A DNA stretch of 41,761 bases, taken from Chrysochromulina tobinii. Its lineage: Eukaryota. The first letter of the stretch is position 1, and each line of letters begins with the position of its first letter. Where the stretch lies: positions 1 through 41,761 of the forward strand of contig JWZX01002622.1 of the NCBI GenBank assembly GCA_001275005.1, written 5' to 3'. The notes under the pieces were generated by a model that saw only the letters and a program-made list of their open reading frames with translations, searched no databases and was not told where the DNA came from. Of this stretch, positions 17,549 to 36,500 are shown piece by piece. Made by a program: the position numbers and the translations under genes.

Positions 17549-19917
17549 TTAGAGCGGGCTGAGCGTCACCCACGGAAAGTGGAAGCAGTCGGGCTGTCCC
17601 TCGTGCGAGAACGTGGCGTTGCTCCGGAGCGTGGACCAGCAAAAGACGGGCTGCTGGTCGTACGTCGGCCCCATGCGCACGTCGACCTCGGGGCCAACGG
17701 CTCGCGATCCCCCCCGGGGAGATGCGGCCGAGATCCCCGAGATGTCGACCTCGGGGCCAACGGCTCGCGATCCCCCCCGAGGAGATGCGGCCGAGATCCC
17801 CGAGATCACGCGAGATGCAGACGAGATCTTCGAGTCGGTCCCCCCCGACGGGTAGACGTCCTTGAGCTCGAGCTCGAGATCGCGACGGCTCGCGATCGCA
17901 TGCGACGGGTTCGCCTCACTCAGCGGATCCACCTTCCAGTTGTTGTACTGCATCAAGTCGCGCATGTCCGCCACCGTCGCGAGGGCGCCGTGGCGGTTTC
18001 GGAAGATGTTGGCGCGAGGGCACGAGTCCCAGCAGGAGTCGTTGTTCGGTGGCGTGGACACGCGCCCTAGCTCGCACGCCGCCGTGTTGCCCGATTTGCG
18101 CGAGATCTGGTCGAGATAGGGGATGTTGTACGAGGCCCAGTAGCCTTCCGCGTTGAGGAACCAGGTGAGGTCTTCCACACCGACCTCGCCCGGGATCTCC
18201 TCGGCGATGACGAAACTCTCGACCGGTAGGTCTTGGCCAGGGGTGAAGCGGCTGAGGTCGAGGATCTGCCACTGGTTCGTGTAGGTGCCTGCTCGGGGAG
18301 GGACTTCTGATGAGGGACACAATCACATGCAATCAGATGCAATCAGCGCACCTGCTGGAGGAGGGACTTCTGATGAGGGACACAATCACATGCAATCAGA
18401 GGCAATCAGCACACCTGAGGCCTCCTTTGCGAAGAGCGTCGCCCACGACGGCGCTGTCGTCGCGAGGGTGTTCGCGGTGATCGCTCGCGCCCAACAGAGG
18501 CACGATCTCGGCGTCACCAGCTCGAAGAGCTCCGGATTGTACACGTCATTAGTGGTCTCGATGACCGCGAGCTGTGCCGAGGCCGAGTGCACGATGTAAA
18601 AGTCGTCGAGCGATGCGAGCAACCCTGGCGAGGACGAGAAGTGCACCTGTGGGGAGAGTGGCAGTAGCGGAGGCGCCGCGGTGAGCACTTGCATGCGCGG
18701 CGGGTGAGGAGCAGCCCTGGCGAGCTCGCAATCTGGCGGCAGGAGCGGAGGCGCCGCGGTGAGCACTTGCATGCGCGGCGGGTGAGACGAGGGGCGAGCT
18801 CGCAATCTGGAGAGACGAGACGTGTACCTGGCGTATCTCCGGCTGCGGAGGCGGCGCGTGCGCGGACAGGTGGAGTAGTACCGGCAGGGAGAGGTGCTTG
18901 AAGGTGCGCGGACCTGTGGGGAGAGAGGCGCCGTGGTGAGCGCTTGCATGCTGGCCTCAGAAGGGAGAGGTGCTCGAAGGTGCGCGGGCCCATGGCCGAG
19001 AAGGAGCTCCAGGTCGTGTACTCAGGGGTCATCAGAGGTCATCAGAGGTCATCAGAGGTCATCAGGGGTCATCAGAGGTCATCAGGACCCATGGCTGAGA
19101 AGGAGCTCCAGGTCGTGTGTGCGAAGAGGACGTCACTCCGGTCCGGCAGCAGCTTGAAGAGCGACGAGCATCGGAGGTCCACTGGGAGCTCCGTCTTTGG
19201 ATAGTACAGTCTCGAGTTGTAGATGGGGCCGCGAGGGTCGAATCTCCGAGATTGGATCTCGGGCTGATGGAATTTGGACTTGATCGTGTACATGTCGCCC
19301 CATGCCTGCACAAAGAGCAGCTTGAGCACGTTCATCCCGGTCGACGGGAGCAGGTCCTCGGCCGTGTACGCGCCCGCCGCCAGCGCACCGAAGTCGAAGT
19401 CGAGGGCGCCGCGCGGGGCTTGCGGGCTCAAGCATGGCGACTGCGCATAGCCCTCAGCGATGCCATGGAGCTGCTCCAGCGTGGACTTGATGCTGAACCA
19501 GAACGCGTCCGCCGCGTGCGCCTCGGCCGCCATCCGCTCCATGTATAGGTAGTTCTCTACGATGAAGCCCACGATGGCCGCCGGCGGAGGGCCCTCGAAA
19601 TTCGAGTAGAACATGTTGGGATACGAGTCGCTGATGCCTTGGCAGGCGAGAGTGCCCTCGGCAAACCCGGCCGCGCGATACACTTTCAGGACATCCTCCG
19701 GCGTGCTCGCGTTCTCGGCCACCGTCTCGACGCTCAGATAGCCCCAGCCGCTCTCTTGAGTGTTGTTCGTGTAGCTCACGGAGACGAGCGCGCCGCTTGT
19801 GGGCCGGACCGCGCCAATCTGTAGGCCGCCGCGGCCGTCGACGTACACGTAGCTCCTGGGGTGCGGCTCGGCGCGCACGAGAGCACAAGATACTGCCGTA
19901 TACAAGAAGGCACTCAT
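17549..19917 (-). CDS. Phospholipase B-like (PLBD / lamina ancestor, Ntn hydrolase); exons 19917-19089, 18913-18828, 18646-18415, 18288-17549 (~628 aa)
   Basis: Signal peptide, SGWGYLSV, AAGFAEG, CSSLFKLLPDRSDVLFAHTTW (Ntn Cys), FSSSPG..SLDDFY, IETTN, SGTYTNQW (restored by splicing), YWASYNIPY, PRANIF, GGTDSK, GPT. All three junctions are frame-consistent. Confidence 0.92.
17681..17806 (-). repeat. 63-nt in-frame tandem duplication in the last PLB exon
   Basis: ISGISAASPRGGSRAVGPEVD x2; units start at 17681 and 17744. Confidence 0.92.
18289..18414 (-). other. Intron made of two back-to-back 63-nt GT..AG units
   Basis: Units 18414-18352 and 18351-18289 are near-identical; removing both restores ASGTYTNQW. 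Confidence 0.88.
18647..18827 (-). other. Intron (181 nt) with exon-like head and two copies of the acceptor cassette
   Basis: CAG|GTACACGTCTCGTC...CTCTCCCCACAG|GTGCACTTCTCGTC; GCATGCAAGTGCTCACCGCGGCGCCTC occurs twice. Confidence 0.85.
18914..19088 (-). other. Intron (175 nt) with CTGATGACCT repeats, an internal copy of the spliced junction and the acceptor cassette
   Basis: ATGG|GTCCTGATGACC...CTCTCTCCCCACAG|GTCCGCGC; splicing gives SAMGPRTFKH. Confidence 0.8.
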
Positions 19918-20120
19918 TGCGACGGACTTGAAGCGGAGACGATGCGCGCAGTGCTTCCAGCCAGGCCGATCCCGAGCCGTCCGCTGAATCCGTCCGCGGG
20001 CGCCTTCGGCCTCTCCGGAACTTGGGCGAGAACGTTCTCGGCAGTTTGGTACGCGAACTACTTGCACCTGTCCCCACGCTCTACCGGGCTTTGCCACGTC
20101 ATTTCGAGCGCTCGCGCGAG

Positions 20121-20966
20121 ATGCCGCGACTCGGCCGACCGCTCGCCGCCCTCATCATCGGCGTGGCGCTCCACGCCTGGGCCGCTCCGTCCGCGGACGA
20201 GCTGCAGGCCTTCCGTGATACGCGCGGCACCATGTGCCGTGCGGTCGTGCGCGAGATGCACATCGAGATCCACAAGCATAAGCTCCGCAAGAACGGCGAG
20301 GACGACATCTACGAGACGGTGCCGGCAATCTGCCTGGCGATCGTGCAGAACTACTCGCTCACGGCCACGGCACCGCCCTCGCGCAAGTGGTCGCTGAAGA
20401 AGCGGGCCGTGCGCCTCGACGATGACGACGCATTGGATCAGAATCCATCCATGATGATGCATCTGATCACGCTCAAGAAGGCGTGCGAGCACTTCACCGA
20501 CGACTTCCAGCAGGAGCTGTCAGAGCTCATGTACCGATCCGCGCTGCTGCACGACATTGAGCCGATCGTGTCCGAGTTCTGCGAGTCAGATGTGGTCGTG
20601 CAGCCGCCCAAGCCGCCGCCATCGCCGCGCAAGCGCGTAGTGGGCAGCGATGGCGGCGCCAACGGCGGCGGCAGCAGCGGCGGCAGCGGCAGCAGCGGCA
20701 GCGGCAGGAGGCTGAGCAGCGACACGAGCAAAACCAAGGACAGCAGCAGCAGCAGCAGCAGTAGCAGCGGCGGCGGCGGCGGAAGCAGCAGCAGCGGCAG
20801 CAGTGGCAGCAGCAGCAGCAGCAGCAGCAGCGCCCGTAGGAAGTCGAGCGCCAGCAGCGCAGGCGATCGGTCCGACACGGACGGCGGTGGGCGCATGCCC
20901 GATATGGCCGAGCTGCTCAAGCGGTTCGACACCGACGGTTCGATCTCGCCGGCGGAGAACCTCTGA
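20121..20966 (+). CDS. Secreted saposin-like (Canopy/MZB1-like) protein with Ser/Gly-rich tail; 3' end uncertain
   Basis: Signal peptide MPRLGRPLAALIIGVALHAWA and Cys spacing CRAVV...ICL...LKKACEHF...EFC. The ORF runs into the 10-nt repeat array, so the stop codon may be intronic. Confidence 0.6.
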   Translation: MPRLGRPLAALIIGVALHAWAAPSADELQAFRDTRGTMCRAVVREMHIEIHKHKLRKNGEDDIYETVPAICLAIVQNYSLTATAPPSRKWSLKKRAVRLDDDDALDQNPSMMMHLITLKKACEHFTDDFQQELSELMYRSALLHDIEPIVSEFCESDVVVQPPKPPPSPRKRVVGSDGGANGGGSSGGSGSSGSGRRLSSDTSKTKDSSSSSSSSSGGGGGSSSSGSSGSSSSSSSSARRKSSASSAGDRSDTDGGGRMPDMAELLKRFDTDGSISPAENL

Positions 20967-21586
20967 TGACCTCTGATGACCTCTGATGACCTCTGATGAC
21001 CTCTGATGACCTCTGATGACCTCTGATGACCTCTGATGACCTCTGCTGACCTCTGCTGACCTCTGATGACCTCTGATGACCTCTGCTGACCTCTGATGAC
21101 CTCTGATGACCTCCGATGACCTCCGATGACCTCTGATGACCTCTGATGACCTCTGATGACCTCTGATGACCTCTGATGGCCTCTGATGACCTCTGATGAC
21201 CTCTGATGGCCACTGATGACCTCCGATGACCACCGATGACATCGGACGACCTCGGATGACCTCTGATGACCTCCGATGACCTCTGCTGACCTCTGATGAC
21301 CTCTGATGACCTCTGATGATATCTGATGACCTCTGATGACCTCTGATGACCTCTGATGACCTCCGATGACCTCTGCTGACCTCTGATGACCTCTGATGAC
21401 CTCTGCTGACCTCTGATGACCTCTGATGACCTCTGATGACCTCTGATGACCTCTGATGACCTCCGATGACCTCCGATGACCTCCGAAGACCTCTGATGAC
21501 CTCTGATGACCTCTGATGACCTCTGAGGACCTCTGATGACCTCTGATGGCCTCTGATGACCTCTGATGACCTCTGATGACCTCTCA
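20958..21586 (+). repeat. ~62 copies of a 10-nt satellite (CTCTGATGAC)n
   Basis: Directly visible tandem array with variants CTCCGATGAC and CTCTGCTGAC. The same unit occurs in introns at ~19020-19086 and ~35286-35345. Confidence 0.97.
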
Positions 21587-21615: not shown

Positions 21616-21740
21616 GCAATCAGGTGCAATCAGGTGCAATCAGGTGCAATCAGGTGCAATCGGATGTAATCAGGGGAGCCAGCTGGGCGCGGAGCACCTG
21701 CCAATCAGGTGCAATCAAGTGCAATCAGATGCAATCAGGA
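21616..21740 (-). repeat. (CTGATTGCAC)n 10-nt repeats in intron-like context on the minus strand
   Basis: Plus strand shows CAGGTGCAAT repeats; minus strand reads G|GTCCTGATTGC...GATTGGCAG|GTGCTCC. Confidence 0.75.
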
Positions 21741-24882: not shown

Positions 24883-27800
24883 ATGGCGGGGCGAGACGTG
24901 GACGAGGATCTAGAGGCAGCCATTGTCCGCCTATCCGAGGCAGCGCGGCAAACCGCCGCTCCGCTCACTCAATTGGCCACCAGCACCCGCAACGAGGTGA
25001 CGGACTGGAAGCAGGCCGCAGGGCGCACCGACGGCAAAGAGGGCTACCAGTTTGGTGACGTGAGCAGATCACTCCTCAAAAGTACCACAGAGTTGGTTGC
25101 ACGCACCAAGGAGAGGTTCCAACCGGAGGACACAGACTCCTCGTCGGCGGCCACCAGCGCCGATCCGTCTATTGGCATCGCCAGCACAGTCGCGCGCGGC
25201 ATGGGCCAGCTCATTGGAGCGTCCAAGGGCGTGATCACGGCCACGGCACTGGGCATGGTCAAAGGAGGCGTCGCACTGACCGACCGGCTTTACGAGAACT
25301 CGGCAAACCAACTGGTCAACGAAGATGTTCGCGAGCGCTTCCAGAGCCGCATCGGCTTCCAGGCGGGCGCAATCGCCGCCGAGGTGGCGCCACTTCTGGG
25401 CAACATCGCGGCGGCATTCTTTCAGGGCTCGCTCGAGGGCCACGCGGCGGCGCACGGAGCTCTCGCGAGCGCGTATCAGACCGTTGTTCCCGTAGAGGTG
25501 CAGCTCGACATGCAATGTCGAATCGAACAGCGGCTCGGTGCTGTGATGGAACACCTCGTCGAGCCTGCAGTTCTCGAGGCCCTCTCGAGCTTTTATCGGA
25601 GCAAGGTGAAACCCCAGCTGATAGACGATTGGTGGATGCCCGACTACGTACGGCGTGCGGCTCACGAGGTGAGTGATCAGATAGCACATGATCTGATGCT
25701 CGAGCTACCTAATGGGCTGAACATGCTCGTCGGGACTAATGCAGAAGTGGGTGGCGGCCGACGAGCCAAGCCTATGAAGAGTTCGACCGCACCGCCGGCC
25801 GCCGCAGCCGAACAGGCGCCGCCGCAGCTGCCGCAGCTGCCGCCTCCGCCGCCTCCGCCGCCTCCGCCGCCTCCGCCGCCTCCGCCGCCTCCGCCGCCTC
25901 CGCCGCCTTTCGCGGAAGCACTTTCAGCTGTGGAGGCGCCTTCGGCTGTGGTAGCGCCTGCGGAAGAAGTGCTCCTCAGAATTGATAGCTTCATCAAGGT
26001 GGATGAGCAGTACTTTGAACAAGCGAGCTCAAGCTCAGCTGGAGGCACCCAGGCAGCAGGTTCGGTTTCGAAAGCTCCTGGTTCTCTTTCTACAGAAACA
26101 GCTTCACTCCCCCAAGAAAAGCAACGTGACAGTACATCCGGACGTCAGGCGCCTCCGCTGGCGCCTATCGCTGTGGCGGCGCCAGCGGAGGCGGCTTTAG
26201 CTGTGGCAGCGCCTGCCGCTGCGGAAGAGCCTGCTGGAGCTCTTTTGGACCGCCCAGCAGAGCGTCCAGCACCAACCACAAAGACTTGGCGCGAGGCGGT
26301 CGGTCGAGAGAGTGGACGCGACGGTTACGTCTTCGGCGATCTGGCCCGCAGCGTGGTCGGCCGTCTGCGTGGAGACGCCAAGCTGACGGGTACGACGGGT
26401 ACAGACGGGTCACCATCTCGTCAGACTGCCGGGACCCGGACCGGTACCGGTACGGACGAAGAGGTCGTCGACCCAGCGGTGGCGGCGCAGCTTGCAGAAT
26501 GGCGGCGACGTACGGCAGCCGCTAGTGGTGCCGTTTCGGGCACTTCGAGTCCCCACGCCAGCGACACGCCTACCCCGCCACCGTCCCCTCCGGACTCGTC
26601 TGCACCAGTGAATGCACTATCCGAGCCCGATGGCTGCGGCTATGCTGCCTCCGAATGCGCAGCCTCCGAGGCTGAGGAGGCGCCCTCCGAGTATGCGCCT
26701 GACAAGGCCCCAAGGATCGCGTTGTCGTGGGCACCAGGGCCCGCGCTCGACCCTGTGCTCATGGGGCCCCCTTCTGCCGCCCCGACTGCCGCCGCCCCTT
26801 CCACCACGGCCACGACGGCCTCGATGGGACACCGCTTACGAGCGGCGGGCCTGCACGTGCGCGCGCGCCTCCTGTACGCGCACCTGCCCTACCTTCCCAA
26901 CCTACCCTACCTGCCCTACGACCGCTACCTGCCTCAGACCGCTGACCTGCCCTACCTGCCCACAGGTACGCGTACCTGCCCTACGACCGTTCCACCTGGC
27001 AAACCATGCAATCTCCGTCGTCGCTCGCGATCATAGTCCTCGCTTCGTGGCCTTCGTGGGCGACGCGCACCATCTTCTTCGCCGTGCTGCTGCTGCTGCT
27101 GCTGCTCGACCTGGACGAGTACCAGGTGATTGAGCTTGATGGGTGTCGATGACCTTGATCGACCTTGCTCGACCTTGCTTGACCTTGCTTGACCTTTCAT
27201 ACCATTGATGGTGAATGCCACTGAACCTGAGCGCTTGCATGCATACCATTGATGCCGTGTGAGCATTTTGAATGCCACTGAAGCTGAGCGCTGGATTGCG
27301 CTGGATTGATCTGGATCGCGCTGGATGATGTCTGATGAGGCTGAGCGGTGCGGCAACCCGATCCTTCGCGTCGTGCAGTTGATGCAGTTCATCATGGCGC
27401 TCAAGGGCGCTCAGTTTGTGATGGGGCTGCTCCTCGCGCTAGAAGGCTTCTTGTTCTTCTACCACTGCGCCGTGCTCTCCGCACCAAGCAATTGCGACGA
27501 GGCGGGCCCGGGCGTTGGGCTAGGCGTCGGGCTGCAGGTGTTCTGGCAGCTCAGCCTCCAGCTGCTCACGTGGCTTGCCTTTGGGCTGCTGCCCTTCTCG
27601 TCGCAGTGCGGAGAAGTCACCCAGCTCGGAAGGCAGGCGCGTCAATCACAGCTTGCGGAGCGTAAGTGGCGCATGGCCGAGAAGCGCCGTCTCGAGCGCG
27701 AAGAGAAGGCAAGGGCAAAGGGCCCGTCGGTGGTTGCGCTCAGTAGGCTTAAGGGCCAGCTGCCGTCCTCCTCCTCCTCCTCGCAGCAGCAGCAGCAGCA

Positions 27801-29693
27801 AGCGCGTGCGTCCGACACGGCCTCTGTCTACTCTGACTCCACCTACTCGAGTGCTGTCACGAGCGCCGCTAGCAAGGCGCCAGCTGGGCCGGGGCCGGCC
27901 CAGGGAGGGGCGAGGCGGGCTGGAGCGAGCGGAGGCGGTGGCTACATGCAATCTCGAAGTCATCTCGGAGGCGGCTACATGCCTCTTGTCGACGAGGAGC
28001 CGGTAGAGGATGCCGGGCTCGGTTGGTTCCAACGAGCCTTGGGGGAGGGGGCAAAGCCGGCAGAGGATGCCGGGCTTGGCTGGTTCAAACGATCTGTTGT
28101 GCCTGTAGACCCCCTCCTCGTCAACAATGTGGGGGAGGAGGCGGAAACGCAAGGGCCGTTCGAAAGCTCCGAGCCTGGAGCCGAGCCTGGCGAGCTTCCG
28201 GATGGCGCCGAGATGGGCGCGCTCGTGTCCTCGGCGCTCTCCAGCCCGCGTAGCTCGTCGAGCTCGACCAATCTCGGAGTGATCTCGAACGGCTCGTATG
28301 CGAAGCCCCCCCCGAAGGGCTGGAGGCCCGTACAGGCGCGTGAGCCTGATGATGCGGATCATCGGATTCCATGGGTGGAGGGGCTGACAAGGGCGGACGC
28401 GGCCGCCACGTCTTCGGCGCATGCCGCCACCAGTGCGGCGTTCCCGGCGCTAACGGTCGACGAGCCCGTGCCCTCCGCAGCCGCCGCCGAGGGCACACTC
28501 GAGAGTTCCCAAAGCTCTTCCCACGCCGAGGGCACATTCGAGTCGGGGAGGAGGCAAGGGTCGGCGCCGAGCTCCTCGGCTGCATCTGCAGCCGGCTCGT
28601 CGGCTGCGATGGGCTCCTCGGCCTCGTGTATGTACCAGATTGGACGCGCCATCGCGCAGGTCTTCGGCTTCACGGCGCGTGACAACTTCGCGACAAACCG
28701 ACTCCTCTATCTTCTCAGCTGGGACATGTTCGCCTTCGGTGGGTGCGCGTCTGTGTTCGCACTGCTCTTGCTCATGCTGGCTCAGCAGTCGGCGAGCCTG
28801 CAACCCGATCGCAACCTGACACTGCCGATCGTGCTGCTCTCACCTTCCTTTTATGGCTCATGGAGAGTCGAGATCACCTTCTTCCTGGTGCGGCTCGTGT
28901 ACGCACTCTCAGCGCTCCCCTTTATGATCTTTCACCTGCCTTTTGTGCGCGACCTCCTCTCGCACACTTTCGCGACGGGCTACACGAAGCGCGGCGTGTG
29001 CGTCGCCTACGATCGGAGCGGCCTCAGCGCCTTTATAGAGTGGCTCGATCAGTTCCTCCAGCTGCCAGCGGCTCAGGTACTTAGCACCAAGGAGCGCGCG
29101 AAGATCGAGAAAGCCCTGACTGTGGCGCGAGAGTGCCTCGTGGACGAGGATGGCGGCGAGCTCGAGCGCCCGCCGCCGAAGCAGGTGACCACGCGACATA
29201 GAGCGGACCTCATCAGTGCGCTCGAGGCGATCGTGCCGCCCACGCACCCGCTCTTCCCACAGCTCTTTCCCGAGCGACAGATTTGCCTTGAGTACGCGGA
29301 GCGCGTGCGTCACGAGGCGGCCCGTAAGCGCGAGGGCGCTGTGAAAGCGGCCCGGAGCACGAGCCAGACTGCGTTCAAGAGCTGGGAGGAGCACCAGTCT
29401 TCCAAGTATGGAGAGGCGTGGCAGTCTTCCTCGCGCATGCAACTGCTCACTACGGCGCCTCTCCTCCCCACAGGTATGGAGTGGCGTGGCAGCGCGACAG
29501 CGAGGCGACCAACTGCACGCTGTGTGACAGCGCCTTCCACCTGCTTTTGAGGCGGCGCCATCACTGCCGGCTGTGCGGTCGGCTCGTTTGCGACCCGTGC
29601 TCCAAGTCGCGTCGTGTGCCACGTGGCAGCAGCAACAGTGCGAAGCCCGAGCGTGCATGTGATCGATGTGCGCAGGACACTGAAGACGCATGA
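24883..29693 (+). CDS. Large multi-pass membrane protein with C-terminal FYVE finger; exons 24883-26873, 26966-27125, 27379-29405, 29474-29693 (~1465 aa)
   Basis: Three frame-consistent GT-AG introns join the ORFs (LLYAYLPYDRSTW, DEYQ|LMQFIMALKG, SSKYGVAWQRD). Several hydrophobic segments. FYVE motifs WQRD, CTLC, RRHHCRLCG, VCDPC, RACDRC. Confidence 0.82.
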
Positions 29694-33545: not shown

Positions 33546-36500
33546 TTAGAAGACAGTCTGATGTGAGCTGAGTCTGTCAGTCGACAGGCGCTCGGACGAA
33601 ACGCGCTCCGACGACGGGCGCTCTGACGAAACGCGCTCCGACGACGGGCGCTCTGACGAAGTCCGACTGGACGAGGATTTGGGGAAGGCAGCTTCGAGCA
33701 TGTCGCTCGTCGACAGCCCCTTCCACTGGTCGAGCCGGTTGCTGTCGAACTCACCGAGGATGGATTCGTGAGCTGCGTCAGGCACTGCGCAGTGTTCGAA
33801 GTTGAGCTTCCTCTGGAGCACGAGGGCTCTGGGACCTGCCCGAGACGTGCACTTGCTGCTGGGTGCCGGGGTGCTGCACTGTGCCGTGCCTTTCTCGGAG
33901 TCGGATACGGAGGACTGCCCACCGTCGGCGTCAGCAACCTGTGCGAGCGTCAAGTACTGTTTTCCTTTCGCCTTGGCCGCACTCTTGGACGGCTTCAAGG
34001 CCGACTTGGGCGTGAGCTCCGAGGACGAGATCGATGAGGTTGACGAATGAGCCCCTGGCAGTCTGGACGGGGTCGAGATCGAACCTGGCGATCTGGAAGG
34101 GGTCGAGATCGAACCTGGCGATCTGGACGGGGTCGAGATCGAACCTGGCGATCTGGACGAGCTGGTCCCTGGCTGGCGTGACGTAGATGGGCTCTTCGTC
34201 TTCTTGAGGCGTGGAGTCCGAGAGGCCTTGAGGCGAGCCGACTTGAGCCGGGCGGTTTTGAGGCGGGCCGACTTTGAATGCTCATGCAAGCTCGTGATGC
34301 TCTTCGGGGGTGATCGTGCCCGCGCTTGGGCCGCTTCCACAGCTGCCTGGATCACGCTCAGTTCCTCCTCTCGTCTGGCGGAGCCGAGGCGTGCGAGCTC
34401 GTCTGCTTTGGACGGATGCGGCAACTGCGAGCGCCATGTGGGCGGCGCCCGCCCCTCGCGCTTCAGGTGGCTGAGCACACGCGTGGCCTCCTGCACACAG
34501 GCCTCATAGACGGGGTTACGGCTGTTCTGGTTGCCGGCGCCGGTGGCCTCGTTGAGAGCGCGAAGGAGCTGTGGGGAGAGGGGCGAGGCTCCGATTTGAG
34601 CACTTACACACTTACATGCAAGGCTAGGGCTTGGGGGTTGAGGGCAAAAAGGAGGAGCTGCGCGCACCTCCGCCGCCTCGGCGGTGGAGTAGCCGAGCCA
34701 GAGTCGCCCTTCTCGAGAGGGCGAGCGGGAGGGCGAGCGGGAGGAGCGTGCGGCCCCGCGTGCCGTCCCACGAGAGGACTGTGGGGAACGTGCGGACGTG
34801 CTCGAGGGGGAGCGCCTCGGCGGGGTGACGAACTCGAACTCGGTCTGGGGTTGATCTTCATCTTGTGGAGCCGCCTTACGGAGTGCCCCGCCTTTGCGCG
34901 GCGACGACAGATTGGTCGGCACCCAACTCGGCGCCTCAGTTGGCCCTCTTGGAGCGAGCTCGAACTGAGATCGCTCCTCCTCCTCCTCCGCGTCCTCCCA
35001 CTCTTGGCGGCCGTGCTCGGGCCGAGGATGGAGTGCCTTCGTAAGCGCCACGTGGGCATTCTGCATGCGCCGCTCGGGGATCACGTGCTCAGGCTCCTGC
35101 TTGCACGGGTGCCAGCCCAGCCAGCCTTCGTTCCTCGCGTCTCTCAGGTTGCTGAGGGTCTGCCGGTCCAGATCGCGTCTTCGAGCGTTCATCTCTTCGA
35201 GCGTCTCCTTGGCCTTGGCGCGCTCTTCCTCCGTCACTCGCAGCACACTCTCCAACCTCGCTGCCTTGAGAGCGGCCTGTACCTGCAATCAGAGGTCATC
35301 AGAGGTCATCAGAGGTCATCAGAGGTCATCAGAGGTCATCAGAGCTCTCCAATCTCGCAACCTTGAGAGCGGCCTGTACCTGCAATCGGGGGGAGGCACT
35401 CCGTTGCCATCAGAGACAATCAGGGGTGGCCAACAGACGCAGCCAGGGGCCATCAGAGGCCATCAGAGGCACTCCGAGCTGAGTGTACCTGCACTGGATC
35501 AGATGAGAGCTCGGCGACGGCGAGGTGTGCGCCCGTCCCGGCGCCCGTCACCGCCGTCACTGTGGGACTTCCGTGGTCAACGCTCGGCCCGCCCGCTTTC
35601 AACGCAATGTCGAGCGGCGACGCGCCCCACTTGTTCTGGATCGCCTTGTGGGCCCCATGATGCAGTAGCGTTCGGATCACGGCAGGGTTGTTCTTGCGAG
35701 CGGCCTCGTGAAGAGCAGTACTCCCATCGACGCTGACGAGATTGACGATCTCGACGCCGAGATTGCTTGCGAGCACGAGCAACGCGTTGCACACACCGAG
35801 GTGGCCTGCTCGCACCGCGTAGTGCAGCACGCTCAAACCGTACATATCCACTGCAGTGAGCACCTCCTTCGCGCTTGTATGGTTGCCAAGGCGGCCGCTG
35901 AAGCTTAAGACGAGGTCTAGAACGGGCAGCTTGCCGCTCTTGGCCGCCCAGTGCAGCGGCGTCTGTCCCAAGGTATCGGTCTGAGTCAGCATCTCCCCCC
36001 TCTGGGCAGGCCCGGCACTCTCGAGGATCTGACGGAGCGGTTTGAGGTGCGTTCCGGTGCGCATGCATAGCCACACGAGCAGCTTGCGCCCCTCCCTAAT
36101 ATGGGCAAGCATGGCTCGCCAGGTGTTGATCGCACGCCGCGGGGCAATACCGAGGAAGGCGCTCGCCGCTCGCCTCCGCGCACGCACTTTTCTCATGATC
36201 TCATTCAGGCCGGCCCAAAACCGGCGCGCGCCCCAAATGTATTCTTGCACTTGCTTCACCTTTTCAAGCTTGGCCACCAACGCGCGCTTCTCCTCGACCA
36301 ACTTGAGCCAGCGCCGCACGAGGTAGCACCTCTGATGATGCCGATCAGCGCGGTCGAGCATACTCTTGACTCGCAAGAGCTCCCTGAACCGCTCAAGCGC
36401 CTCGAGCTTCGCCGCACCTTCCGGGTCGACGATTCTGCGGAAGCCATCGCGCAATCGCTTGCGCTGGGCGGCCAGCTGCATGAACTCGACCCGCCACTTG

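Follow-up and report, generated by a model that had tools for sequence, protein, structure and literature searches.

How does an intron come to hold, within itself, a nearly intact copy of the exon join that its own removal creates? The intron in question is the first of a gene on the minus strand of a 41,761-nt contig of the alga Chrysochromulina tobinii (JWZX01002622.1, analyzed over its whole length and referred to here as the window), where it occupies 175 nt from GT to AG (18914..19088). According to a scripted comparison, minus-strand positions 19019-18962, inside this intron, are identical at 55 of 58 bases to the join of 19118-19089 and 18913-18886. These segments are the last 30 nt of exon 1 (A, 19089..19118), which encode ..TTWSSFSAMG, and the first 28 nt of exon 2 (B, 18886..18913). 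The two differ at positions 23 (A/G), 32 (T/C), and 45 (A/G), and the second of these mismatches changes the GT of the junction to GC in the inner copy. The near-copy and its altered junction, both reported in a preliminary description of the sequence, are thus confirmed, and the layout proposed there is correct: A, a satellite, the contiguous copies A' and B', a cassette, and B. An independent repeat search recovered the two halves as separate direct repeats, 18986-19019 with 19085-19118 (pair D5; 34 nt, 94%) and 18886-18919 with 18962-18995 (pair D6; 88% over 34 nt). With +1/−2 scoring, A/A' reaches 28 and B/B' 22, whereas 200 dinucleotide shuffles of 18600-19600 gave direct repeats that scored 15 at most.

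The two repeat pairs bracket two unlike inserts, all on the minus strand. The inner layer is a 48-nt cassette (18914..18961) lying between 28- to 32-nt duplications of the start of exon 2, namely B' upstream (18962..18989) and B downstream. This cassette consists of a core, CATGCAAGCGCTCACCACGGCGCCTC, followed by a pyrimidine tract and CACAG; it ends CCCCACAG and supplies the 3' splice site. B is the functional downstream copy and has the Lys codon AAG found in homologues, and B' formerly supplied the 5' end of the intron. The outer layer is a 65-nt (CTGATGACCY)n satellite (19020..19084; period 10, about 6.4 units, ending ..CCCCTGAGT) between 34-nt duplications. Their upstream copy (19085..19118) comprises A, the functional exon end, and GTCC, and holds the present donor GT at 19088-19087. 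The duplication covers the full 34 nt, the first four intron bases being copied as well, as GCCC, and the two copies differ at 2 of 34 bases. The downstream copy, A' with GCCC (18986..19019), is the original end of exon 1 with the original donor, now GC. We consider it very probable that the 58-base copy is the original uninterrupted exon, buried when two inserts arrived in succession, each with a duplication of about 30 bases of target sequence.

The host gene encodes a phospholipase-B-like protein. Pfam PF04916 (Phospholip_B) is matched along the protein at successive profile positions by exon 1 (E = 2.4e-30), exon 3 (2.5e-24), and exon 4 (9.3e-51), and exon 4 retrieves only the phospholipase B family in the ESM Atlas. 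With borders at 19088 and 18914, the gene model is open over 629 codons, and two distant homologues (P0006, 51% identical, and P0001, 40%) are colinear across the join of A and B.

Neither insert is unique to this intron. The cassette core occurs four times in the window, where none would be expected by chance, and in at least 128 metagenome stretches. Among the matches listed, there are 150 cassette instances, of which 134 have enough flanking sequence for comparison and represent 73 distinct sites. At 50 of these 73 sites, the cassette is flanked by a direct repeat of 13–43 nt with a score of at least 10, a score attained in 10 of 217 shuffled pairings; the other 23 sites have no flank repeat. 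Among the 50 repeat-flanked sites, 39 begin with GT at the upstream copy and end with ..CAG before the downstream copy. The 3' junction of the cassette is exact and the 5' junction is ragged, with 0–26 variable nucleotides between the target copy and the core. Satellites behave similarly: arrays of period 9–11 have a flank repeat with a score of at least 12 in 33 of 69 cases (not de-duplicated), whereas shuffled pairings do so in 4 of 192; a score of 20 or more is reached at about ten distinct sites, and the repeats are 23–47 nt long. A search of the whole window against Rfam gave nothing at gathering thresholds, the satellite itself having only sub-threshold, archaeal C/D-box-like matches. 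The idea that the satellite is a ribozyme or retrozyme was dropped, as no hammerhead ribozyme was found despite its CTGATGA motif.

Two other genes of the window carry single-layer analogues. At 29406..29473 on the plus strand, a 19-nt target copy starting with GT is followed by the cassette, CACAG, and the same 19 nt as exon; a FYVE domain begins inside this downstream copy, and the frame is open only after removal of the insert. At 35283..35379 on the minus strand, a 35-nt target copy starting with GT precedes (CTGATGACCT)5 + CTGATTGCAG, the same satellite as in intron 1, and the same 35 nt (32 matches). All the inserts in genes of the window are in sense orientation; Pfam has no match for three of the four flanking ORFs, so that host-gene orientation at 20-21 kb and 33.5-35.3 kb is taken from the ORFs alone. 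A first scan of the window for repeat-flanked GT..AG introns was swamped by tandem repeats, and after filtering it gave 14 matches versus 10–11 in control dinucleotide frames. As the window alone does not suffice to show enrichment, the metagenome cassette family was used instead.

The order of the two events is suggested by an orthologue from a lake metagenome (L023), whose exons are about 99% identical to those of the window. L023 lacks exactly the 99-nt outer block, that is, the 34-nt duplication and the 65-nt satellite, and has the inner layer only: a single exon end, corresponding to A', is followed by GTCCGCGC..B'..cassette..AG|B, with the donor GT intact. There the cassette duplication is 32 nt long with 31 matches. 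B' reads GAG and B reads AAG in the window and L023 alike, and this common difference makes the cassette layer older than the split between the two. L023 does carry the same satellite elsewhere: it sits at the intron 2 donor, with a 27-nt copy of the end of exon 2 plus GTA at its flank, which is the same kind of donor-duplicating event. A and A' have diverged more (2 of 34 bases) than the exons of the window and L023 (roughly 1%), small numbers being compared.

Similar states were found in public assemblies among 33 ORFs of close relatives that contain the ..WSSFSAMG motif. Twenty of them run from this motif into the satellite (PDDL, PDDH, or PDDP, then a stop), five run into B' and the cassette, and eight (the P0004 group), which could derive from DNA or RNA, pass from A directly to B. 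Close relatives are therefore polymorphic for the presence of the inserts, both in the 99-nt block and in the three ORF states. Satellite-bearing and cassette-only alleles are both found on closely related exon-1 haplotypes.

These alleles suggest the following history. In a first step, whose outcome is seen in L023, the 48-nt cassette would have entered the exon and become flanked by a 28- to 32-nt duplication beginning with GTCC. It would have brought a branch-point-like motif, a pyrimidine tract, and CACAG; with the GT donor provided by B' and the AG by the cassette, duplication and cassette together would have formed an intron, leaving the mRNA unchanged. In a second step, deduced from the difference between the window and L023, the 65-nt satellite would have entered the border of exon 1 and this intron, and a 34-nt duplication of the exon end plus GTCC would have created a second copy of the donor, upstream of the first. 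With the upstream GT (19088) as donor and the old AG (18914) as acceptor, splicing would then excise everything between, including A' joined to B'. The old donor would later have changed from GT to GC, a mutation that is itself observed. The preliminary description had proposed that the copy is a fossil of the allele before the intron, produced by two duplication and insertion events in succession; an orthologue with the first event only, and many analogues with the footprint of one or the other, support this proposal.

The polarity could be reversed, since the L023 state could arise by deletion between A and A', or a single messy repair could have made both duplications and both inserts at once. 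Two observations are compatible with such scenarios: both allele types lie on several closely related haplotypes, as recurrent deletion between 34-nt direct repeats would produce, and the 2 differences in 34 bases between A and A' look old relative to the exon divergence of the window and L023. However, a recombining sexual population accounts equally well for the haplotype pattern, and at the variable sites L023 has the pair (G, T), a synonymous G together with the T of the donor, which one crossover between the present A (A, T) and A' (G, C) of the window cannot yield. Moreover, each layer is found alone at many other sites, so that two events need no special pleading, and the G/A difference between B' and B is the same in the window and L023. 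We regard a single event or a reversed order as unlikely.

On the two-insertion reading, the outer GT and AG would be the present intron borders; the preliminary description had raised the contrary possibility that the internal copy is used as exon. RNA contigs from two of five runs (X15 and X17) break at 19085 and 18914, the last bases that transcripts share whether or not the outer GT-AG intron has been removed. Between the two candidate donors, 19088 and the internal GC, these breaks fit the outer one, and neither the inner GC (18988) nor the AG at 19021 coincides with a contig break in any of the five runs. We infer the splice 19089|18913 from these graph break points and from the eight ORFs passing from A into B. 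With k = 31, a contig over 19089|18913 would reach only 26 nt to one side of the join and 29 nt to the other, and the absence of this joint (98% likeness) weighs neither way. In the three other runs (X13, X14, and X18), a contig that splices introns 2 and 3 continues unspliced and unbranched through 18914-19051. The composite intron is poorly spliced in the RNA runs examined, and in the source strain it may often not be removed at all; its retention leads to a stop five codons past the junction.

GC donors work in many eukaryotes, and the inner copy is present in RNA contigs, which would agree with a working exon or alternative splice site at the inner GC or at the AG at 19021. Against this, the contigs are unbroken over 18988 and 19021 in all five runs, with no alternative path assembled, and use of the AG at 19021, as read from the sequence, would add 31 nt and shift the frame, retention giving the early stop already mentioned. 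We judge this use of the inner copy highly improbable. The arrangement also differs from a stwintron, in which an inner intron must be removed first to rebuild the outer site: in the DNA, neither the outer GT nor the outer AG is disrupted, and the internal splice sites of intron 1 show no branch in the RNA contigs of the five runs.

The preliminary description had also offered an mRNA-templated repair patch, in which spliced mRNA or its cDNA is pasted into the intron during repair. A match to the spliced join at 55 of 58 bases is what such a patch would give. Yet in L023 exon 1 simply ends with A', and the intron begins directly after it with B', the upstream one of the cassette's two target copies; the contiguity of A' and B' is thus ancestral and genomic, and not copied from spliced RNA. 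Furthermore, the GAG of B' differs from the AAG of B in both lineages, which would not be expected of a recent cDNA copy, and the inner copy stops exactly at the borders of both duplications, a footprint shared with unrelated genes. We give this explanation almost no weight.

An assembly artefact, or the collapse of two haplotypes also envisaged in the preliminary description, might be suspected in a repeat-rich region where the contigs of DNA runs are fragmented and both allele types exist in nature, but it is hardly credible, as a contig of different size (L095, from a record of 38,554 nt) agrees at 881 of 881 bases, RNA contigs from five runs match 18850-19051 and 19057-19150, on either side of the satellite, without differences (although at k = 31 they are too short to check copy number inside the ~64- to 65-nt satellite), and 20 independently called ORFs extend from exon 1 into the satellite. 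For the DNA-type runs X1 and X9, 18895-19057 is not covered by any contig piece among those listed, which weighs neither way.

With the two-insertion history preferred, we compared its footprint with known routes to new introns. In the AGGT tandem-duplication model, the intron consists of duplicated exon only, in the order B' then A'. Here too, duplicated exon provides a splice site and splicing restores the mRNA; however, the copies are separated by a foreign cassette and a satellite and are arranged as A'B', and this model was rejected. Target-primed reverse transcription, as in non-LTR or SINE-like insertion, generates target duplications of variable length. It shares with the present inserts these variable duplications, the exact 3' junction, the ragged 5' junction (0–26 nt), and the sense orientation. 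Unlike such elements, the inserts lack a poly(A) tail, and a reverse-transcriptase partner was not found; selection to restore the reading frame can account just as well for the exactness of the 3' junction.

The events also resemble introners. The cassette is a short repeated sequence present in introns of many unrelated genes, its insertion creates an intron with one splice site from the element and the other from the target duplication, excision of duplication and element leaves the mRNA unchanged, and copies are polymorphic among close relatives. According to the available texts, a target duplication also supplies the 5' splice site in the Symbiodinium type and in Polarella classes 4/5 and 6/8/10 (PMC9860276; bioRxiv 10.1101/2020.10.14.339549). 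Introner target duplications are described there as 3–9 bp long, fixed for each family, and often accompanied by terminal inverted repeats (PMC9860276), or as 3–8 nt long (bioRxiv 10.1101/2020.10.14.339549). In contrast, flank repeats here span 13–43 nt within one family, and the element is only about 45–55 nt long or a satellite of 10-mers. Inspection of the aligned cassette copies by eye revealed no inverted termini, and the analysis turned up neither an enzyme nor a terminal inverted repeat or autonomous element. We class the events as introner-like insertions with unusually long, variable target duplications. For a marine Chrysochromulina genome, the text seen of the same study gives 4-bp duplications and an element that carries the 5' site, the opposite of the arrangement of the present cassette (PMC9860276). 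No paper on haptophyte introners was among the matches listed in a literature search, the portions available of a haptophyte genome paper contain nothing on intron repeats (PMC4580454), and the main texts of PMC9860276, PMC12130899, and the 2020 preprint, as far as accessible, contain no description of 13- to 47-nt duplications around introners.

Another parallel is provided by the neo-introns of Daphnia pulex, attributed in the available text to repair of staggered double-strand breaks, including "staggered-then-staggered" secondary insertions (PMC4202315). As there, a direct repeat ties one end of the intron to the adjacent exon, a second repeat-flanked insertion in or beside a young intron enlarges it, and alleles with and without the intron may coexist. 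In Daphnia, the repeats shared by exon and intron measure 4–12 bp and the inserts are mostly unique (PMC4202315), whereas here the repeats of 28–34 nt surround recurrent families and the second event duplicated the donor itself. As a leading guess, the inserts may have been captured as short intron-type DNA during repair of widely staggered breaks; a route resembling target-primed reverse transcription would be our second choice.

A wider reading can be offered tentatively, as something possible and short of probable: the alga may have an undescribed way of making and enlarging introns by means of "3' half-intron" modules. These modules would be the 50-nt cassette with its branch point, pyrimidine tract, and AG, and the satellites of CTGAT-type 10-mers. 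They would enter transcribed DNA in sense orientation with variable duplications of 13–47 nt, a footprint that would lie outside the described introner and transposon classes. Insertion over an existing donor would duplicate it, shift the 5' splice site upstream, and bury a fossil of the exon. The cassette-only and cassette-plus-satellite stages would still segregate in lake populations, joined by the insert-free stage if the ORFs passing from A into B prove genomic.

Biologists have long asked how new spliceosomal introns originate, and the great age of most introns conceals the answer. Intron 1 retains a record of the exon before insertion, the insertion that created the intron, the insertion that moved its donor, and the decay of the old donor. 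The cost to splicing can be seen in the heavy retention of the intron, which brings a premature stop. With target duplications this long and variable, the inserts depart from the 3- to 9-bp footprints given for introners in the texts available, and they may have entered by another route. In nature, the cassette-only stage persists as an allele, so that the sequence of events, the cost of each step to splicing, and the mechanism of insertion can be tested directly in a culturable alga. The locus would thus show the stepwise birth, and then the growth, of a new intron.

The gene studied lies on the minus strand, where exons 19917-19089, 18913-18828, 18646-18415, and 18288-17549 form an open frame of 629 codons. 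The Pfam family Phospholip_B (PF04916) is matched by exons 1, 3, and 4, each aligning to a later part of the profile than the one before. Exon 1 ends in ..ACACGACCTGGAGCTCCTTCTCAGCCATGG at 19089, with a donor GT at 19088, and exon 2 begins with GTCCGCGCACCTTCAAGCACCTCTCCCT at 18913, preceded by ..CCCCACAG. As the distant homologs P0006 (51% identity) and P0001 (40%) are colinear over this join (..WSSFSAMGPRTFKH.. and ..WSSFIALGPRVFKH..), the exon 1 end (A, 19118-19089) followed by the exon 2 start (B, 18913-18886) is native protein sequence. According to the preliminary description, intron 1 contains a copy of its own exon-exon join. A scripted comparison bears this out: 55 of the 58 bases of 19019-18962 agree with the joined exon ends, and the change of the junction GT to GC is one of the mismatches. 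A direct-repeat search recovers the two halves as separate pairs (D5, 34 nt, 94%; D6, 34 nt, 88%), scoring 28 and 22 (+1/-2) compared with a best of 15 among 200 dinucleotide-shuffled versions of the kilobase around them. The codon conserved in the homologs is the Lys AAG of exon 2 and not the Glu GAG of the inner copy. The sequence itself is confirmed by a stretch from a separate 38,554-nt contig (L095), identical to the window at 881 of 881 bases, and by contigs of five RNA-type runs, which match 18850-19051 and 19057-19150 with zero differences; these k=31 contigs cannot bridge the satellite interior and support its flanks, not its copy number.

Intron 1 (19088-18914, minus strand, 175 nt) is made of two nested units, each consisting of a target copy, an insert, and a target copy. 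It starts with GTCC, followed by a 65-nt satellite (19084-19020, about 6.4 units of CTGATGACCY), the copy A' with GCCC (19019-18986), the remainder of the copy B' (to 18962), and, at its 3' end, a 48-nt cassette (18961-18914; TCTGAGGCCAG-CATGCAAGCGCTCACCACGGCGCCTC-TCTCCCCACAG). The satellite of the outer unit is flanked by 34-nt copies (A+GTCC and A'+GCCC), and the cassette of the inner unit by 28-nt copies (B', and B as exon).

L023, taken from a lake-metagenome contig of 2,341 nt, carries the same gene with exons nearly identical to those of the window. It has one exon 1 end (..CTTCTCGGCCATGG), then directly GTCCGCGCACCTTCGAGCACCTCTCCCTACCG, the cassette, and AG followed by GTCCGCGCACCTTCAAGC..; the donor is GT and the cassette flank repeat is 32 nt long. 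Just one block, 99 nt long and made up of the 34-nt duplication and the 65-nt satellite, is present in the window and missing from L023. The exon end of L023 has the G of the window A', not the A of the window A, and both sequences have GAG in B' and AAG in B. This comparison identifies A' as the original exon end and B' as the copy of the target lying upstream of the inserted cassette, and places the cassette layer before the split of the window and L023 lineages. At the intron 2 donor, L023 has a satellite of its own, bordered by a 27-nt duplicate of the exon 2 end plus GTA; this is a second, independent donor-duplicating satellite insertion.

Allele states can also be compared in public contigs, a collection that includes both DNA and transcripts. 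Among 51 proteins fetched from their ORFs, 33 are close relatives with ..WSSFSAMG: 20 go on with PDDL, PDDH, or PDDP and then stop, reading into the satellite like the window; 5, among them the ORF from a contig as long as that of L023, go on with PRTFEHLSL(L/P)RPACKRSP..., reading into B' and the cassette; and 8 go on with PRTFKHLSLPVLL.., from A straight into B. These last 8, whose source may be insert-free DNA or transcripts, all extend into intron 2. Closely related exon 1 haplotypes carry both satellite-bearing and cassette-only states, which fits either a polymorphism that is still segregating and recombining or repeated deletion between A and A'. The G and T of L023 at the two variable sites, however, are impossible to obtain from one crossover of the present window copies. 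As the haplotype pattern fits polymorphism or deletion, the polarity is inferred, not proven. An mRNA-templated repair patch, one of the two origins proposed initially for the inner copy, is not borne out, as L023 shows A' as the original exon end and B' as a target copy. The other, a fossil of the pre-intron allele left by two events, is supported by the nested repeat-flanked units, the cassette-only ortholog, and the recurrence of both footprints at other sites.

Splice-site use was assessed indirectly, from contigs of the RNA-type runs. In X13, X14, and X18, exons 4, 3, and 2 are spliced together in a 995-nt contig (18288-18413 and 18645-18825 are skipped) that continues unspliced through 18826-19051, and a second contig goes from exon 1 into the satellite; neither intron 1 border shows a branch. 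In X15 and X17, the exon 2 contig stops at 18914 and the exon 1 contig at 19085, and separate unspliced contigs continue over 18885-19051 at a depth of 13-14, compared with 23-28 for the exons. Because GTCC and G occur in both, 19085 and 18914 are the last bases common to unspliced RNA and RNA spliced from 19089 to 18913. The breaks fit the outer GT-AG, and none of these contigs breaks at the inner GC (18988), the other donor considered initially, or at the AG at 19021. Since unspliced introns 2 and 3 are seen at low depth only (2.9 versus 15.7 in X13, 7.2 versus 28.4 in X15), DNA contamination does not explain the intron 1 signal. From the contig break points, we read intron 1 as being spliced from the outer GT to the old AG, with low efficiency. 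Its retention leads to a stop five codons past the junction (ATG GGT CCT GAT GAC CTC TGA), the ..SAMGPDDL end found in 20 public ORFs.

The cassette core is present four times in the window, with none expected by chance: in intron 1, at 29406-29473 (plus strand), and twice in intron 2. At 29406-29473, a 19-nt GT-starting copy precedes the core and CACAG, and the 19 nt then recur as exon sequence with 18 matches. A FYVE zinc finger (PF01363, E 3.2e-20) begins in this downstream copy, and only removal of the 68 nt brings it into frame with the upstream ORF. Metagenome contigs scanned with the 26-nt core pattern yielded at least 128 stretches; at least 150 cassette instances were found among those listed, of which 134 with enough flank reduce to 73 distinct sites. 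Among the matches listed, 50 of the 73 sites have a flank repeat (after ..AG versus upstream of the core) that scores at least 10 and spans 13-43 nt, two values of 70 being tandem-array artefacts, and 23 have none; the repeat begins with GT in 39 of the 50. The same score was reached in 10 of 217 shuffled upstream/downstream pairings, some from related tandem arrays. At the sites listed, the downstream copy always directly adjoins the cassette 3' end, and 0-26 nt of variable sequence, at times with partial core copies, lie between the upstream copy and the core. The unit of target copy plus cassette occurs in 2-4 tandem copies at many loci (e.g., the contig stretches L010, L011, L025, L036, and L126). 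Three 30-nt tandem units at 34055-34144 (minus), each with GTTCGATC at the start and CCAG at the end, resemble this multiplication.

Intron 2 of the phospholipase gene (18647-18827, minus) is also composite and contains its two cassette cores at 18773-18748 and 18695-18670, along with partial copies of the exon 3 start; at the same intron, ORFs of a second haplogroup (P0004/P0012) have a variant of the cassette with a copied exon 2 end at its flank. In L040 and L048, an intron of another gene carries a block GTACACGTCTCGTCTCGCCAGG.. plus cassette equal to the start of this intron 2, seemingly an old target copy copied together with the cassette. Intron 3 (18289-18414, minus) consists of two 63-nt tandem units, 94% alike, each with a GT start and a CAG end, skipped together in RNA contigs. 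Exon 4 holds a 63-nt tandem duplication (17681-17806, 98%), kept in RNA contigs and encoding a repeated 21-residue segment; P0001 and P0006 lack the whole region of about 33 residues.

The satellite leaves a similar footprint at 35379-35283 (minus), where a 35-nt GT-starting copy, five satellite units plus CTGATTGCAG, and the same 35 nt (32 matches) follow each other. A set of 69 arrays of period 9-11, taken from the window and the fetched loci without removing duplicates, includes 33 whose flank repeat reaches a score of 12 or more, versus 4 of 192 shuffled pairings; a few of the 33 are low-complexity coding repeats and not insertion footprints. At about ten distinct satellite sites the score is at least 20 and the repeats measure 23-47 nt. 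Within the window, the four cassette copies and the three satellite arrays are all sense with respect to the surrounding ORFs, ORFs being the sole guide to the orientation of two of the host genes. The same satellite, CTGATGACCT, also forms an array of about 62 units at 20959-21584 (plus), which starts where the plus-strand ORF 20022-20966 ends and may represent either a 3' region or a satellite intron of great length; behind it, at 21616-21739, lies an array of the GCAATCAGGT type. A candidate repeat-flanked intron lies at 26874-26965 (plus), with a 19-nt direct repeat (GTACGCG.ACCTGCCCTAC, 18 matches) around a 9-mer array (ACCTGCCCT) and a CACAG end. From 23566 to about 24070 extends a tandem duplication of 306-nt period, with stretches of 76-80 matches in 80. 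The satellite unit contains a branch-point-like CTGAT and TGATGA/CTGA. Its arrays at 19020-19069 and 20969-21538 give sub-threshold archaeal C/D-box snoRNA matches (20-28 bits versus a gathering value of 41), and no Rfam family, hammerhead included, reaches threshold in the whole window.

Intron 1 is thus most likely a two-layer insertion fossil, young, still polymorphic, and poorly spliced. The cassette would have inserted first and created the intron, the upstream target copy giving the GT and the cassette a branch-point-like GCTCAC, a pyrimidine tract, and the AG. The satellite would then have inserted across the exon/intron border, duplicating the donor; once the upstream donor took over, the former exon end would have been buried within the intron. 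With the two insertions in the opposite order, the gene would not be spliceable, because A' ends in ..ATGG, not AG. The variable 13-47-nt duplications argue against a transposase of fixed stagger and would be consistent with the repair of breaks with a wide stagger, capturing short intron-type DNA, or with a mechanism resembling target-primed reverse transcription. Selection by itself could account for the GT start and the exact 3' junction, because only such insertions keep the reading frame intact.

The target duplications reported for introners in PMC9860276 and bioRxiv 10.1101/2020.10.14.339549 are of 3-9 bp, fixed per family, and often accompanied by inverted termini; the inserts described here do not share this feature. 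The closest published parallel to the nested structure is provided by Daphnia neo-introns, with 4-12-bp direct repeats between exon and intron and with secondary insertions termed "staggered-then-staggered" (PMC4202315), although their repeats are shorter and their filler is unique sequence. A 2025 survey lists many transposon classes as introner sources (PMC12130899); none of those considered here has this footprint, and our literature searches for haptophyte introners yielded no description, although the supplements of these papers may contain relevant families. The finding is a case of introner-like intron gain, which is a known kind; this variant is marked by unusually long and variable target duplications and by a branch-point satellite among the inserts.
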